Assembly: GCA_000004695.1 (NCBI GenBank)
Contig: CH709154.1
Location: forward strand, 1-2,584
Direction of reading: 5' to 3'
Source of the DNA: Dictyostelium discoideum
Lineage: Eukaryota
Length of the DNA: 2,584 bases
Below are positions 1-2,584 of this stretch, one piece after another (position 1 is the first letter of the stretch; every line of letters begins with the position of its first letter). The position numbers and the translations under genes are program-made. The notes beneath the pieces were generated by a model. That model was not told the DNA's origin, searched no databases, and worked only from the letters and a program-made list of their open reading frames with translations.

Positions 1-12
1 AGATAATTTTTT

Positions 13-32
13 AGAATGTTCTAGAACATTCG
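13..32 (+). promoter_or_regulatory. Heat-shock element (HSE)-like array: four contiguous alternating pentamers aGAAt-gTTCt-aGAAc-aTTCg; positions 14-31 (gaatgttctagaacattc) form a perfect 18-bp palindrome
   Basis: Read directly. GAA sits at 14-16, TTC at 19-21, GAA at 24-26 and TTC at 29-31, each separated by exactly 2 nt. That is the canonical HSF-trimer site nGAAnnTTCnnGAAnnTTCn. It lies about 110-130 bp upstream of the first ATG (144) of the + strand ORF. Further palindromic TTCGAA cores occur at 29-34, 47-52 and 67-72. Confidence 0.5.
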
Positions 33-143
33 AAGAATAAAAAATTTTCGAAAGAAAAGTAAAAATTTCGAACCGGCACAATGATGCGATCATTGAGCAA
101 GGTCGAAAAACATAAAAATTAAATAGAAACCTTTGATTTAAGA

Positions 144-596
144 ATGAAATCAATGGAAGATCAAATCAACAACCTTTCCTTAGCCTTTACAAGATTCATG
201 AAAGAACCAATGTTCTATTCTAATAAAAATTCACGTAGCCAACCTTCTCATGATAACTCTGACACTGAGAATGAACAAAGTGAAGATGAATCAAGTAACA
301 ATTTCGATGTTTCAACCGATTATCAATTATCCGATACCTTACTTGGTCAGTACAAACATATGGTAAACAATCAAGGTTTACTCGTAGAAGAAGAATGTAT
401 CCTCAAGAAAGATGAGATATCCGAATTGAATAAAGTATTCAACTTTCCATCTAACTTCCAAGTGAATGTCGCTCCATTTATTACACCTGAAGGTAATTCT
501 GTATCATCCAACTTCAAAAACAATGATACTGACTTGTTGATTGTCGAAAAGAGAATCAACGATAGCTTGAAACCTTTGATTCTCTTTTTTTTATAA
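144..596 (+). CDS. Hypothetical small acidic Ser/Asn/Asp/Glu-rich protein (150 aa), no recognisable domain; possibly heat-shock regulated
   Basis: It is the only long uninterrupted ORF in the window with an ATG start. There is an A at -3 (aagaATGa) and a second in-frame ATG at 154. Codon usage is less AT-extreme than the flanks, with many GAA/GAT/AAC/TTC/GTC codons. A low-complexity acidic tract (SDTENEQSEDESSNN) looks like a CK2-type phosphoacceptor cluster. TAA stop at 594-596 is followed by a T-rich stretch and AATAAA hexamers. The C-terminal 'PLILFFL' is encoded by the T-run just before the stop, so the true C-terminus or an unrecognised intron is uncertain. Confidence 0.45.
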   Translation: MKSMEDQINNLSLAFTRFMKEPMFYSNKNSRSQPSHDNSDTENEQSEDESSNNFDVSTDYQLSDTLLGQYKHMVNNQGLLVEEECILKKDEISELNKVFNFPSNFQVNVAPFITPEGNSVSSNFKNNDTDLLIVEKRINDSLKPLILFFL

Positions 597-622
597 ATTT
601 TTTGATATTTATTAACAATTAG

Positions 623-657
623 AATAAAAAATATATATAAAAAATAAATAAAATAAA
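623..657 (+). terminator. Cluster of AATAAA hexamers (putative polyadenylation signals) 27-60 nt downstream of the ORF stop codon
   Basis: AATAAA occurs at 623-628, 643-648, 647-652 and 652-657. The background is so A-rich that chance occurrence is likely, hence the low confidence. Confidence 0.3.
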
Positions 658-754
658 AGAATGATTTACATACTAAATTTTAATTCTACGATAAGTCTTA
701 ACAAATATTGTTTAATATTATATAAAATTTTTGTTTTAAATAATGCGTTTTATT

Positions 755-775
755 AAAAAAAAAAAAAAAAAAAAA
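755..775. repeat. Homopolymer A(21)
   Basis: Counted directly: an uninterrupted A run from 755 to 775. Confidence 0.95.
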
Positions 776-799
776 CATATGAAAAGTGAAAATTTTTTC

Positions 800-815: not shown

Positions 816-949
816 CTTTTTTTCGAAACAACTCGGCTTATTCCCAAATAACTCCATCTTTTTCAAAATAACTTTATTTATTCAGAATTAATTCAATTAT
901 TCACTGATAGGTCCATTGTAGTATTTCATTTTAATTTTAAATCTTATAA

Positions 950-964
950 TTTTTTTTTTTTTTT
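950..964. repeat. Homopolymer T(15), immediately 3' (minus-strand sense) of the integrase remnant; a second T(8) lies at 970-977
   Basis: Counted directly. Confidence 0.95.
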
Positions 965-977
965 CATTATTTTTTTT

Positions 978-1838
978 CACTTGAAAAGGTGTAAACATAG
1001 AAGTAGAAGATATTGTATTATTGATTGAAAATTGAACCACTTTTAAGTACAATGTCCAGGAACTATTATGAATATTATTAATATGTCATATCAAGCTCTG
1101 GATTTGCAGAGGTTTGGCTTGTAATAAAGTTTTACGTAAAGCGTTTGCTAAGACTCTAACTTATATCTCTGCTTGACCGTCGCCTGATGATGATAGGGTA
1201 AGCATGTGTGATGTTTGACATTATTATTAATTAAGAACTTGGACCATGAGTTACTTGAGAATAACGGATCATTATCTGAAATAATTACGGATGGAAATCT
1301 AAATGTAAACATAACTTGATCTTGTAACAATGGAAAAATATCTTTTGAATTAGTAGATGATGGAATTGGTATGAGTACGACATATTTGGATAATCGGTCA
1401 ACTACAATTAATATTCTATTAAAGTTCAATTTGATTAATTGTACATTTGTTCAAACTTGAAAGGAAATCCATGCTAATTTCACTAAAACATCTTGATGGT
1501 GAAAGAGGTGATAGTAATCCAATTTGATGTTTCCTTGAATCGGAGGCACAAATACATATTTTATTATTACTACAATAATCTTTGATATCATCAATCACTC
1601 CTTTTCAAAAGAATTTTCTTTTAATTTAATCAATGGTTTTGAAACTACTTCAATGACCTGCTAGTGCTAAATCATGATGTATGGAAATTACTTGATTTAT
1701 TACAAAAGTCTCTAATGGTATTATTACAATAATATTTTCATTTTCTTTTAAGCATTGATCTAATGGATAAGTGTTTAATTGTTGATATTGGTTAGTAACT
1801 TTTTGAAGTTTGATAAATTTCCGCAAGAAAAAATTCAA
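978..1838 (-). pseudogene. Ty3/gypsy-type (Metaviridae-like) LTR-retrotransposon integrase remnant, 5'-truncated pol fragment. The N-terminal HHCC zinc-finger region, DDE catalytic core (rve) and C-terminal region are all recognisable; it is disrupted by 4 in-frame stops and 2 frameshifts
   Basis: Minus-strand conceptual translation, stitched by hand (fs marks a frameshift, / a block boundary): LNFFLRKFIKLQKVTNQYQQLNTYPLDQCLKENENIIVIIPLETFVINQVISIHHDLALAGH*SSFKTID*IKRKFF*KGVIDDIKDYCSNNKICICASDSRKHQIGLLSPLSPSRCFSEISMDFLSSLNKCTINQIE[fs]LNFNRILIVVDRLSKYVVLIPIPSSTNSKDIFPLLQDQVMFTFRFPSVIISDNDPLFSSNSWSKFLINNNVKHHTCLPYHHQATVKQRYKLES*QTLYVKLYYKPNLCKSRA*[fs]NNIHNSSWTLYLKVVQFSINNTISSTSMFTPFQV. This matches the conserved integrase series in order: HHD..AGH-x-G..KT, F(Y/F)W.GM..D(I/V)..Y, C..C, GLL.PLP.P..P...ISMDF, ILVVVDRFSK, (H)G.P..I(I/V)SD(R/N)D..F.S, YHPQ(T)..Q.ER.N.TL...LR.Y, NW...LP..EF.YN.....STG.SPFE. 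The C-terminal part parallels Ty3 IN (NIQNW..YLPQIEFVYNST....SPFEI versus NIHNSSWTLYLKVVQFSINNT....TPFQV). Stops sit at 1650-1652 (TGA), 1626-1628 (TAA), 1605-1607 (TGA, exactly at the conserved Trp of F-Y-W-P-G-M), 1148-1150 (TAG) and about 1090 (TGA). Frameshifts are near 1430-1440 and about 1085. ORFs 1650..1838 and 1148..1429 from the supplied track are two pieces of this. Confidence 0.8.
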
Positions 1839-1844
1839 AAAATG

Positions 1845-1862
1845 AAAAAAAAAAAAAAAAAA
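1845..1862. repeat. Homopolymer A(18), immediately 5' (minus-strand sense) of the integrase remnant; followed by T(8) at 1866-1873 and T(7) at 1884-1890
   Basis: Counted directly. Confidence 0.95.
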
Positions 1863-2188
1863 TTGTTTTTTTTGTTAAAAATGTTTTTTTCATATTAATT
1901 TAATATGAAGTTTTTAACTTGGAAAAATTAAATTTATTGAATATCAAAAAGAGCACCAAAATCAACAAGTTTTGTTTCATTTGATAAATCACTTTTGATT
2001 GTTTGGTATTTATTGACTAAATAGCCAATGACACACCACACATCGTGATGTCTTTCCAAAACTTTATCCATATCTATTGTATAGCTTTTAAATTTATATC
2101 TAAGTGGTAGACTTGCTATTTAAAATTGTTTAATTCTTGTAAATACGTTTTCTATTATTATTCTAATAGATTTTTGATTGTTATCTTT

Positions 2189-2584
2189 TTATTTTTGGTA
2201 ATCAGTTCTTTGACCTGATGGGATCGTAAATATATTTTTGAAATGTTTTGTTAAACCCCTGAATCTTTTGTCACCAAACGGAATCAACATTTTCATCTAG
2301 TGATTTAATAAATTCTAAATCTCTTTGAAATAAATTAATATCGTTTTTACAACCACCACTTGGGTACCCTATGTGTAATATTTTCCCACTATCGGGACAA
2401 CAATAAACTAGTAGAGTTAAAGTTGATTTACATTTTTTACCACTGTATAACATATTTCTTAATTTTTCATTGGTGGGAATAGTTATTTGTTGTTCCGATC
2501 CATCGACCACCATTGTTACTGTATATTGTTTAACACCATCATAATAGTCACAACTATTTGATTTATCTTTTGTATCATTAAATA
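2189..2584 (-). pseudogene. Harbinger/PIF-type DDE transposase remnant (DDE_Tnp_4 / HARBI1-like nuclease domain). It is internally deleted and frameshifted and continues beyond the 3' end of the window
   Basis: Minus-strand translation from 2582 downward: FNDTKDKSNSCDYYDGVKQYTVTMVVDGSEQQITIPTNEKLRNMLYSGKKCKSTLTLLVYCCPDSGKILHIGYPSGGCKNDINLFQRDLEFIKSLDENVDSVW*, then in the +1 frame KRFRGLTKHFKNIFTIPSGQRTDYQK*. Three collinear blocks match the DDE_Tnp_4 consensus. First, aIDGThIpI.aP versus VVDGSEQQITIP, carrying the first catalytic D. Second, Y.nRKgfhSinvqvVcDhkGrFlnVvarwPGSvHDsrvF versus YSGKKCKSTLTLLVYCCPDSGKILHIGYPSGGCKNDINLF, carrying the second D, with identical spacing apart from one residue. 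Third, fN.rhs.aR..vEnafGrLKgRFRiL versus FQRDLEFIKSLDENVDSVW[*]KRFRGL, carrying the catalytic E. Removing a single nucleotide at the TGA (2271-2273) gives ENVDSVWDKRFRGL, which lines up residue-for-residue with ENAFGRLKGRFRIL. The roughly 40-aa segment that normally lies between the HD and fN.rhs blocks (containing LLGDsGYP) is absent, so I infer an internal deletion. Confidence 0.55.

Follow-up and report, generated by a model that had tools for sequence, protein, structure and literature searches.

A predicted Ty3/gypsy-type integrase pseudogene among dead mobile elements of Dictyostelium discoideum

The minus strand of a 2,584-nucleotide stretch of Dictyostelium discoideum DNA (positions 1 to 2,584 of contig CH709154.1, assembly GCA_000004695.1; hereafter, the window) carries, at positions 978-1814, what is very probably a non-functional, neutrally decaying integrase fragment from the pol gene of a Ty3/gypsy (Metaviridae) LTR retrotransposon. 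The relic comprises about 276 codons that encode an N-terminal extension, an H2C2 zinc-binding domain and a DDE catalytic core; it is cut short at both ends and interrupted by five in-frame stop codons and two frameshifts. The window has a GC content of 26%, with long homopolymer runs, and matches end to end, at 98.6% identity, a 13-kb contig that consists of repeats only (L001).

Domain content and reading frames of the integrase relic

The six-frame Pfam scan of the window yielded three families, all on the minus strand, namely rve (2.1e-09, 38 bits), Integrase_H2C2 (3.3e-09, 37.2 bits) and a DDE_Tnp_4 relic; the integrase stretch matched only the first two of these, each above its gathering cut-off, the plus strand gave no Pfam family, and a scan of the window for Rfam families gave none. 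When the translation was stitched across the lesions, both integrase domains scored above the Pfam gathering cut-offs: 40.8 bits (2.9e-10) for rve, with a cut-off of 32.6 bits, and 38.9 bits (9.6e-10) for Integrase_H2C2, with a cut-off of 25.5 bits. Among proteins of solved structure (phmmer against PDB), the best match was the Ty3 Gag-Pol (7q5b), in a single alignment of 244 residues with an E-value of 2.1e-12; the integrase of PFV matched with an E-value of 3.7e-09 and was aligned through all three catalytic residues. The dictyostelid relatives described below matched the window in tblastn with E-values down to 1.8e-46. Together, these searches bear out the collinear minus-strand integrase of the preliminary description for the interval from about 978 to 1814, and the blocks named there (GLLxPLPIP, ISMDF, VVVDRFSK, SDRD in the form SDND, YHHQ and the tail) are all found at the places given. 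The features of the relic are as follows (asterisks denote stop codons).

978-1814, minus strand: Ty3/gypsy-type integrase relic (Pfam, Ty3 Gag-Pol match, tblastn with dictyostelid relatives)
1443-1814, minus strand: segment A, frame -3 (tblastn frame path, codon table), IKLQKVTNQYQQL...IHHDLALAGH*...GLLSPLSPS...ISMDFLSSLNKC
1548-1700, minus strand: degenerate H2C2 zinc-binding domain (PF17921, 9.6e-10, stitched residues 34-84)
1494-1520, minus strand: GLLSPLSPS motif
1464-1478, minus strand: ISMDF motif
1467-1469, minus strand: first catalytic Asp (in ISMDF), kept; aligns with PFV FFIDYIG and Ty3 ISMDFV
1436-1442, minus strand: first frameshift, -3 to -1 (tblastn alignments switch frame between 1443 and 1435)
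1184-1435, minus strand: segment B, frame -1, rve core (Pfam rve, tblastn), NRILIVVDRLSK...VIISDNDPLF...CLPYHHQ
1385-1405, minus strand: VVDRLSK motif
1268-1279, minus strand: SDND motif
1274-1276, minus strand: second catalytic Asp (in SDND), kept; aligns with PFV HSDQG and Ty3 TSDRD
1184-1195, minus strand: YHHQ motif
1182-1184, minus strand: second frameshift, -1 to -3 (loss of 1 bp from the Gly codon that separates YHHQ and DGQAE)
978-1184, minus strand: segment C, frame -3 (tblastn), GDGQAEI*VRVLANALRKTLLQAKP...SLI*HINN...SSWTLYLKVVQFSINNTISSTSMFTPFQV
1167-1169, minus strand: catalytic Glu (in GDGQAE; GAG), kept; aligns with Ty3 DGQSE and PFV GKVE
978-1064, minus strand: tail block, SSWTLYLKVVQFSINNT...TPFQV

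The path through the minus strand thus runs in frame -3 from 1814 to 1443, in frame -1 from 1435 to 1184, and again in frame -3 from 1184 to 978. The first change of frame, at 1435-1443, agrees with the frameshift previously placed near 1435. The second had been placed at about 1085; the tblastn alignments with the relatives locate it instead to a 1-bp deletion at about 1183, where the relatives read through in a single frame (YHHQGNGQAEIMV or YHHQGNDQAEIIV) and the relic shows the overlapping codons CAG/GGC. Past YHHQ, the relic reads on as GDGQAEI*VRVLANALRK..., without a further change of frame as far as 978; relatives align in frame -3 from 1184 or 1220 to 978, and segment C gave single-frame alignments with P0013 (2.5e-14) and with the relic at locus L002 (39% over 69 amino acids). 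Because the 1-bp deletion after YHHQ shifts the frame, the sequence YHHQATVKQR, formerly read as the counterpart of the YHPQTDGQTER block, the stop assigned to 1148 and the frameshift placed at about 1085 are wrong-frame artefacts; the block consists of YHHQ followed by GDGQAE.

The preliminary description held the catalytic Glu to be substituted (TVKQRYK), a call that arose because the frameshift at about 1183 was missed; the Glu codon is intact and aligned with the Glu of the Ty3 and PFV integrases, and once the deletion is bridged, the spacing between the second Asp and the Glu is exactly 35 residues. The first two Asp residues had rightly been considered retained, the second of them in SDND, but according to the PFV and Ty3 alignment, the first is that of ISMDF rather than that of VVDRLSK. 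Thus, the complete D,D35E triad is kept in the relic, and a single missed 1-bp deletion suffices for a false inference of catalytic residue substitution. The zinc finger, described as a legible HHCC, is recognizable at a score above the PF17921 cut-off but is incomplete: His 1674-1679, His 1653-1655 and the second Cys (1554-1556) are kept, and the first Cys of the CxxC motif is replaced by Asn (AAT, 1563-1565); the sister copy has Tyr there, and the relatives have Cys (CKSCNVC or CKSCKVY at this site).

By analogy with what is established for the integrases of retroviruses and Ty3, the living element would have relied on the H2C2 domain and the D,D35E core for two reactions: processing of the cDNA ends after reverse transcription, and joining of these ends to chromosomal DNA.

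Truncation and the neighbouring elements

Homology with the relatives extends from about 1814 to 978. The window lacks the GPY/F C-terminal domain, with about 115 C-terminal amino acids of the relatives left without a match; the domain is present in the L002 relic and in P0007, so its absence reflects truncation of the 978-1814 copy, and the relic is therefore cut at both ends. Accordingly, the designation near-complete was an overstatement, and the description of a 5'-truncated solo pol fragment holds with regard to a truncated solo pol but has to be extended to the 3' end. The Pfam scan and the repeat search confirm that there is no RT or RNase H upstream of the relic on the minus strand and no LTR in the window; protease and gag were not found within the window either, and the LTR-like direct repeats around the relic are homopolymer-driven matches only. 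The relic is flanked by the following features.

144-596, plus strand: 5' fragment of DIRS-1 ORF1 (GAG-like) (homologues; by-eye alignment with P0163 and P0165)
597-977, no strand: AT-rich, homopolymer-rich filler, 11-23% GC, no detectable coding homology
1813-1890, no strand: imperfect inverted-repeat arm bracketing the DDE_Tnp_4 unit, anchor TTGCGGAAATTTAT on the minus strand
1934-2584, minus strand: DDE_Tnp_4 (PIF/Harbinger-type) transposase relic (Pfam PF13359, 6.8e-16), continuing beyond the window

The filler occupies the expected place of the GPY/F domain. Beyond it, the DIRS-1 ORF1 fragment, assigned by reference to the published DIRS-1 architecture (PMC5633606), has 108 Dictyostelium homologues, some of which are fused to Tyr-recombinase or RT models, and its homology to full-length copies stops at about 582. 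On the other side, what stands above 1838 is a second dead mobile element, unnoticed in the preliminary description. This DDE_Tnp_4 relic contains stop codons and a frameshift at about 2277, with the match split over two frames in the six-frame scan; its copy in L001 scores 4.2e-17 (Pfam). The unit also has an intact homologue of 243 amino acids (P0273). Positions 1813-1890 of the window are 86% identical, in inverted orientation, to positions 7085-7161 of L001, and the outer end of this inverted repeat (1813) coincides with the start of the integrase homology (about 1812-1814). The coincident coordinates suggest that insertion of the DDE element caused the 5' truncation of the integrase. No unambiguous target-site duplication of the DDE_Tnp_4 unit was detected, the flanks being ..ATATATC/ATAAATTTCC.. 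and ..GGAAATTTAT/CAAACTT...

Contig L001 also contains DIRS-type inverted repeats and RT, and an integrase copy related to the relic (32-46% amino acid identity) directly downstream of RVT_1 and RT_RNaseH_2 in the same orientation. This RT-RNase H-integrase stretch lies further upstream and has its own, different integrase, and therefore is not the 5' half that the relic lacks. No LTRs were detected for any copy.

The arrangement in L001 bears on the possibility that the relic derives from a cut-and-paste transposase of the Ginger/Tdd superfamily and not from an LTR retrotransposon. D. discoideum is the type host of the elements Tdd-4 and Tdd-5, both of which encode Gypsy-integrase-like proteins, and the H2C2, DDE and GPY/F modules are common to Ginger1 transposases and Gypsy integrases (Bao et al. 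2010, PMC2836005). The elements of this superfamily are defined by TIRs with TGT... termini, target-site duplications of 4-5 bp and the lack of RT within the element; the window indeed contains neither RT nor LTR, and inverted A/T-rich stretches (929-972 and 1837-1880) flank the relic. These stretches, considered as TIRs, turned out to be homopolymer runs; control Dictyostelium loci contain comparable pairs by the dozens to hundreds. Moreover, the related copy that immediately follows RT-RNase H in L001 has the idiosyncratic motifs CLPYHH and GNGQA(E/Q)IMVRIV in common with the relic, the nearest intact homologues are Pol polyproteins, and Ty3 is the best match of solved structure; for Tdd-4 itself, the reported identity to Ginger1 over the DDE domain is only about 24%. 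A Ginger/Tdd origin thus appears very unlikely.

Under the Ty3/gypsy reading, the copy has lost, upstream, gag, PR, RT, RNase H and most of the N-terminal extension and, downstream, the GPY/F domain and the LTR; since then it has acquired its five stops and two frameshifts, and one of its zinc ligands has been lost. The 5' break lies at the terminal inverted repeat of the PIF/Harbinger-type element, itself dead, and the 3' side gives way to the AT-rich filler followed by the truncated DIRS-1. With this TIR at one break, and the filler and the truncated DIRS-1 at the other, the relic represents a layer in a nested transposon graveyard of the DIRS-1-rich and probably pericentromeric kind, with a presumed location at a centromere; DIRS-1 makes up about 50% of the D. 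discoideum centromeres (PMC5633606). Decayed Ty3/gypsy pol fragments in DIRS-1-rich clusters are to be expected in this genome, and the biological weight of one more is minor.

Lesions and pseudogene status

The reading frames defined above contain five stop codons.

1650-1652, minus strand: TGA; relatives have Trp (GHW)
1626-1628, minus strand: TAA; relatives have Leu
1605-1607, minus strand: TGA, in place of the conserved Trp of F(Y/W)WxG
1161-1163, minus strand: TAA; relatives have Met or Ile
1086-1088, minus strand: TGA (codon table)

Three of the five replace residues conserved in the relatives (Trp, Leu and Trp), and given the conserved Trp at 1650-1652 and at 1605-1607, both of these stops can be attributed to TGG>TGA changes. 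The stops reported previously at 1650, 1626, 1605 and about 1090 are confirmed, the last being the TGA at 1086-1088; the one at 1148 lies in the wrong frame, and the actual stop in this region is the TAA at 1161-1163. An alternative code in which TGA specifies Trp was considered as an explanation of the stops and rejected given that TAA stops and two frameshifts are also present and that the host, judging from intact neighbouring ORFs, uses the standard code. Comparison with the 98.6% identical copy in L001 showed that 8 of the 10 substitutions in the relic are non-synonymous, along with an additional 2-bp frame-breaking indel. From this neutral pattern of substitutions and from the lesions, the relic is predicted to be a non-functional pseudogene and appears to lack any present function.

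Conceivably, the relic could belong to a host gene, either a live one with introns or a domesticated one, which is what is implied by the gene models P0001 (ACTFIT_012388) and AX4 DDB_G0294284, which gene callers built on this sequence in two assemblies; a sceptic could also read residual function into the retention of all three catalytic residues. However, the 'introns' of the models still align to conserved blocks, namely half of the H2C2 domain and LNKCT...NRILIVV, and P0001 is chimeric: its ORF opens with the C-terminal part of the adjacent DDE_Tnp_4 relic and is obtained only when such conserved coding blocks are 'spliced out'. One zinc ligand is gone, the C-terminal domain is missing, the close relatives are all fragmentary, and the near-identical copies differ by the frame-breaking indel and the mostly non-synonymous substitutions. 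A host gene is therefore extremely improbable, and the two models, which almost certainly are annotation artefacts, would be better masked as transposon relics. The chance that the motif series is a fortuitous resemblance in AT-rich, low-complexity DNA is negligible, for all the low GC content and long homopolymer runs of the window, considering two independent Pfam domains in the correct order with E-values of about 1e-9 each, the 244-residue Ty3 alignment (2e-12) and the tblastn matches with the relatives (1.8e-46).

Family placement and comparison with known elements

An exhaustive HMMER search over 1.8 billion representatives, with the gene model P0001 as the query, retrieved as the nearest sequences Dictyostelium fragment models, followed by those from Acytostelium, Heterostelium and Synstelium and by generic 17.6/K02A2.6-like Pol polyproteins. 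The Heterostelium match is labelled 'LTR-retrotransposon skipper' but, by its GPY/F motif, is the Pp_DGLT-A.1 of Spaller 2016; P0016 (36%) is Pp_DGLT-A.1 by the same motif. The closest sequences are P0010 (61% over the core), P0013 (48-62%) and the L002 relic (40-58%). Every close relative is itself fragmentary, and the lineage to which the relic belongs, a decayed Ty3/gypsy lineage of dictyostelids, yielded no intact member in D. discoideum.

In a comparison with 23 dictyostelid or Ty3 cores, the identity of the integrase core of the relic did not exceed 38%, with the published cores machine-read from Fig. S2C of Spaller 2016 and the row order checked on Ty3 and Pp_DGLT-A1. Against the published consensus cores of D. 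discoideum, the identity is 28% for Skipper-1, 30% for Skipper-2 and 31% for DGLT-A, the alignment score of the latter being among the lowest of the set. Membership in Skipper-1 or Skipper-2 was judged by family-level integrase identity and a chromodomain in the C-terminal extension, and membership in DGLT-A by family-level integrase identity and insertion 13-33 bp upstream of a tRNA gene. No chromodomain was matched in any Pfam scan, and the window and the 13-kb L001 contain no tRNA genes. Searches for the GPY/F motifs published for Dd_Skipper-1, Skipper-2 and DGLT-A (Fig. S1 of Spaller 2016), allowing at most 2 mismatches and also by tblastn at relaxed settings, gave no convincing match in the window, L001 or L002, and the GPY/F region of the relatives matches none of the three. 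Hence neither Skipper-1 nor Skipper-2 (DGLT-P), given the low core identity and the different GPY/F of the relatives, nor DGLT-A, given the core identity and the lack of a tRNA gene, was retained as the parent.

Tentatively, and with considerable doubt, the relic might derive from an extinct Ty3/gypsy lineage, the fourth of the D. discoideum species complex and a counterpart of Pp_DGLT-A.1-3 outside the catalogue of Glöckner 2001 and Spaller 2016. The better-preserved relatives of this putative lineage are the RT-RH-IN copy of L001, the L002 relic, P0010, P0012, P0013 and P0007; the Pp_DGLT-A.1-3 group has so far been described only in Polysphondylium/Heterostelium (Spaller et al. 2016, PMC5006619). 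The lineage may already be in Repbase as Gypsy-1_DD, whose consensus is reported to have the motif YPYY ahead of its zinc finger (PMC2836005); a loose Y..YP-like stretch (NQYQQLNTYPLD) is found in the relic at about 1767-1793.

Among the known systems, Ginger1 and Ginger2/Tdd resemble the relic in that their transposases are Gypsy-integrase-like, with H2C2 and DDE domains, but the relatives of the relic are joined to RT-RNase H, and no credible TIRs or target-site duplications were detected. Skipper-1, Skipper-2 and DGLT-A belong to the same superfamily and reside in the same host, where Skipper-1 gathers in DIRS-1-rich centromeric clusters, and the copies of Skipper-2 and DGLT-A are all incomplete or degenerate (PMC5006619, PMC5633606). 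With Ty3, the relic shares the order of the H2C2 zinc-binding domain and the D,D35E catalytic core, and the blocks GLLxPLP, ISMDF, VVDR(F/L)SK, SD(R/N)D and YHxQxDGQxE; unlike Ty3, it is dead, has lost one zinc ligand, and has no GPY/F domain, upstream RT-RNase H or LTRs within reach. The NGQAEI and SDND signatures are common to the group of the relic and Pp_DGLT-A2 and A3, and the RNase H block of the related element in L001 is 53% identical to that of Pp_DGLT-A2, whereas identity to the D. discoideum families does not exceed 30%. The core in the window, however, is only 31-36% identical to those of Pp_DGLT-A1-3, and therefore the link to Pp_DGLT-A runs mainly through the better-preserved relatives. 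The relic and its relatives hint at a past Pp_DGLT-A-like lineage in D. discoideum which, if real, would add a minor chapter to what is known of retrotransposon history in dictyostelids.

Identity, extent and reading frame of the integrase relic

An unbiased six-frame Pfam scan of the window, with stop codons replaced by X, detected three families, all on the minus strand: rve (2.1e-09), Integrase_H2C2 (3.3e-09) and DDE_Tnp_4, the latter over two frames. No Pfam family was found on the plus strand, and the scan detected no RT, RNase H, protease or gag in the window. In the stitched integrase, rve scored 40.8 bits (cut-off 32.6) and H2C2 38.9 bits (cut-off 25.5). Among all PDB chains searched with phmmer, the top match was the Gag-Pol protein of yeast Ty3 (7q5b; one 244-residue alignment, E 2.1e-12), followed by the integrase of prototype foamy virus (PFV; E 3.7e-09). 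These profile and alignment scores exclude a chance resemblance: the Ty3/gypsy-type integrase relic is real and lies where the preliminary description had placed it.

The sole close match to the stitched minus-strand translation of 978-1838 is P0001 (ACTFIT_012388), a D. discoideum "hypothetical protein" (78% identity) encoded on a 13,223-bp sister contig, L001 (GCA_054883475.1 JBTAPE010000014.1). Positions 10725..8150 of L001 match the entire window in reverse orientation with 98.6% identity, and the contig adds 10 kb of context beyond the window, which itself is 2584 bp long, with 26% GC and long A/T homopolymer runs.

Homology to the related Dictyostelium model P0010 starts at ~1814 (IKLQKVTNQYQQL in the window versus IKSNSISDQYNKL) and stops at 978 (TPFQV). 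Relatives extend ~115 residues further, through the GPY/GPF module (P0007 and the 10,934 region of another Dictyostelium locus, L002); this C-terminal part has no match anywhere in the window, and positions 597-977 are filler with 11-23% GC. Because homology spans only ~1814-978 and the C-terminal part of the relatives is unmatched, the relic is truncated at both ends, consisting of the N-terminal domain and the catalytic core without the C-terminal domain; "near-complete", as it had been called, is too generous.

The reading frame was traced by tblastn using as queries intact plant-type Ty3/gypsy integrases (P0002 and P0004) and dictyostelid relatives (the related L001 integrase "copy 1", the L002 relic, P0010, P0013, P0014 and P0016). 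The path, consistent across queries, is frame -3 (~1814 to 1443), -1 (1435 to ~1184) and -3 again (1184 to 978), the last segment reading GDGQAEI*VRVLANALRKTLLQAKPLQIQSLI*HINNIHNSSWTLYLKVVQFSINNTISSTSMFTPFQV. Given that this segment aligns with P0013 (E 2.5e-14) and the L002 relic in a single frame, and that relatives read through the site uninterrupted (...CLPYHHQGNGQAEIMVRIV... or ...YHHQGNDQAEIIVRIV...), the second frameshift reflects the loss of 1 bp from the Gly codon at 1182-1184. It had previously been put at ~1085; the reading "YHHQATVKQRYKLES*" and the stop at 1148 resulted from staying in the wrong frame.

Stop codons in frame on the correct path, and catalytic residues, of the integrase relic
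1650-1652, minus strand: stop TGA; Trp in relatives (GHW...), TGG>TGA
1626-1628, minus strand: stop TAA; Leu in relatives
1605-1607, minus strand: stop TGA; Trp in relatives (...ELVKRNFYWYG), TGG>TGA
1467-1469, minus strand: first catalytic Asp, D of ISMDF
1274-1276, minus strand: second catalytic Asp, first D of SDND
1167-1169, minus strand: catalytic Glu, E of GDGQAE
1161-1163, minus strand: stop TAA
1086-1088, minus strand: stop TGA

The catalytic triad, located by alignment to the PFV and Ty3 integrases, is retained in full (3/3). The Glu, earlier thought to be substituted, is found in GDGQAE, 35 residues past the second Asp once the 1-bp deletion is bridged, and the D of VVDRLSK, earlier taken for the first catalytic Asp, is not catalytic. 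The H2C2 domain keeps both His and the second Cys, but has Asn (AAT, 1563-1565) in place of the first Cys of the CxxC motif (CKSCNVC in relatives). The L001 sister copy has Tyr (TAT) at this position, which suggests the codon path TGT>TAT>AAT. The preliminary description was right in its core integrase call and wrong about the Glu, about which Asp is the first of the triad, about one stop, about where one frameshift lies and about how complete the relic is.

Element class and coding status

An origin from a Ginger/Tdd-type DNA transposon could at first sight be suggested by the inverted A/T-homopolymer stretches that flank the relic (window 929-972, T15-CAT-T, and 1837-1880, A-ATG-A18) and look like terminal repeats. 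Such an origin is unlikely: these flanking stretches, the only inverted repeats there, consist of homopolymer runs, with dozens of comparable pairs in control Dictyostelium loci, and so represent background; furthermore, related copies are linked to RT-RNase H, and the nearest intact homologs are Pol polyproteins.

The possibility that the relic is a live or domesticated gene might be raised by the public "hypothetical protein" genes annotated on it (window 978-2071; P0001 at L001 8665-9577; and P0011, the AX4 gene DDB_G0294284), but is contradicted by the stops and frameshifts, by the substitution pattern and by the artificial way in which the gene models are built. Within the relic, 10 substitutions separate the window from L001, and 8 of them are non-synonymous; in addition, a 2-bp indel shifts the frame in L001 only. 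This pattern is as expected from neutral drift. The open frame of P0001 begins inside the C-terminus of the neighboring DDE_Tnp_4 relic, and its "introns" are stretches still alignable to conserved integrase blocks, including those that contain stops; the frame is attainable only through this start and the removal of integrase blocks. P0011 (59 aa, partial) is the same kind of model, and these public gene models on the pseudogene are likely annotation artefacts.

A nested cluster of mobile elements

Upstream on the minus strand, Pfam identifies a relic of a PIF/Harbinger-type DDE_Tnp_4 transposase, with stops and a frameshift, at 1934-2584 and beyond; it runs on in L001 at 7133-8800, where the unit is flanked by an imperfect inverted repeat of ~53-110 bp.

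Inverted-repeat arms of the DDE_Tnp_4 unit, anchored on ATAAATTTCCGCAA
L001 7085-7137 (also 7085-7161): one arm
L001 8860-8912: other arm

The 12-mer AAATTTCCGCAA occurs just at these two arm sites within the 58 kb of loci examined; no clear target-site duplication was found at the flanks of the unit. The right arm corresponds to window 1813-1890, and its outer end meets the start of the integrase homology. Judging from these coordinates, the simplest reading would be that the upstream part of pol was lost when the DDE element arrived, or through a rearrangement at the end of that element. According to a review, the transposases of D. discoideum DNA transposons are all unlike known transposases (PMC5633606), so this unit may be an undescribed element or reflect an unrecognised affinity of DDT/thug. 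The only two detectable relatives of the DDE_Tnp_4 relic are P0273 (L004 6001-6732) and P0272 (L003 6001-7654). P0273 is 54% identical to the relic; its ORF (243 aa, one exon) is intact and keeps the D/D/E positions. It is surrounded by ordinary D. discoideum genes, does not share the ATAAATTTCCGCAA repeat and is possibly a HARBI1-like gene that became domesticated.

On the other side of the integrase relic, window 144-596 (plus strand) is an open frame of 150 codons without a Pfam match but with 108 Dictyostelium homologs, some of them in fusions with tyrosine-recombinase or RT models; homology to full-length copies ends at ~582, followed by AT-rich filler. A DIRS-type RT/RNase H is present in L001, as are inverted repeats of 271 nt that are 93% complementary. 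DIRS-1, which accounts for about half of the D. discoideum centromeric sequence, is bounded by inverted LTRs and encodes a tyrosine recombinase as well as a GAG-like ORF1 (PMC5633606). The open frame fits a truncated 5' fragment of DIRS-1 ORF1. Beyond the DDE unit, L001 ~5100-7019 contains a decayed Ty3/gypsy RT and RNase H together with an internally deleted integrase of its own, which is 32-46% identical to the window integrase and shares unusual motifs with it; this is a related element, not the missing 5' half of the window relic. Given that DDE_Tnp_4, related Ty3/gypsy and DIRS-1 remnants lie around it, the integrase relic is one layer of a nested transposon cluster, and a centromeric location is plausible.

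Several other features of this region were observed. Window 1-799 (the DIRS-1 fragment and ~200 bp) shows no differences from the L001 sister copy, compared with 18 substitutions plus indels (~1.1%) in 800-2584; under a uniform rate, the probability of this invariance is ~1e-3 to 1e-4, and it could be due to a younger DIRS-1 layer or to gene conversion among copies of DIRS-1. Phased arrays of 11-12-bp units (variants of AAATTACCTTTAAA and TTTAAAG..) occupy the DIRS-type inverted repeats of L001 and adjoining segments (198-700, 1520-2180, 2910-3180 and 10780-11060). Directly outside a DIRS-type inverted repeat, L001 11081-13012 (plus strand) is an intact 643-aa ORF without a Pfam match, the first 69 bp of which recur with 94% identity 9.6 kb away, at 1489-1557; it may be the coding part of a further mobile element specific to Dictyostelium.

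The integrase family of the window relic has two more relics in L002 ("D. cf. discoideum"), at 10700-12000 (minus strand) and 7900-8400 (plus strand), one of which retains the GPY module (KLDIRTTGPYTVYKIL). Both adjoin parts of DIRS-1, namely, the end of an inverted LTR and a Phage_integrase gene, so DIRS-1 clusters seem to be the only places where the family survives.

Affinity within dictyostelid Ty3/gypsy elements

An exhaustive HMMER search of 1.8 billion representatives with P0001 as the query returned only seven proteins with E <= 1e-10, namely, the Dictyostelium fragment models P0010, P0011, P0012 and P0013, followed by Acytostelium and Heterostelium proteins; generic Ty3/gypsy Pol polyproteins had weaker E-values. 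The GPY/F motif of P0016, annotated as "LTR-retrotransposon skipper", is exactly that printed for Pp_DGLT-A1 by Spaller et al. 2016. In the machine-read alignment of Fig. S2C of that work (23 rows, row order verified on Ty3 and Pp_DGLT-A1), no row exceeds 38% identity to the window integrase core, compared with 61% for P0010. The three catalogued D. discoideum LTR families show 28% (Dd_Skipper-1), 30% (Dd_Skipper-2, or DGLT-P) and 31% (Dd_DGLT-A) identity, so the relic is not a copy of any of them. In its RNase H block, the related L001 element shares 53% identity with Polysphondylium Pp_DGLT-A2, whereas the D. discoideum Skipper and DGLT-A families reach at most 30%. No tRNA gene was found nearby. 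On the strength of these core and RNase H identities, the GPY/F motif and the relatives found, the relic belongs to a decayed dictyostelid Ty3/gypsy lineage that is closest to the Pp_DGLT-A.1-3 group of Polysphondylium/Heterostelium. It may correspond to the Repbase element "Gypsy-1_DD", for which Bao et al. 2010 (PMC2836005) is the only mention.

Overall, the relic is a fragment of a Ty3/gypsy integrase, truncated at both ends and decaying neutrally within a transposon graveyard of D. discoideum, and it is an ordinary and already-understood kind of object. The sole mildly novel possibility is that its family represents an uncatalogued, extinct lineage in D. discoideum, as the likeness of the L001 RNase H to Pp_DGLT-A2 hints.
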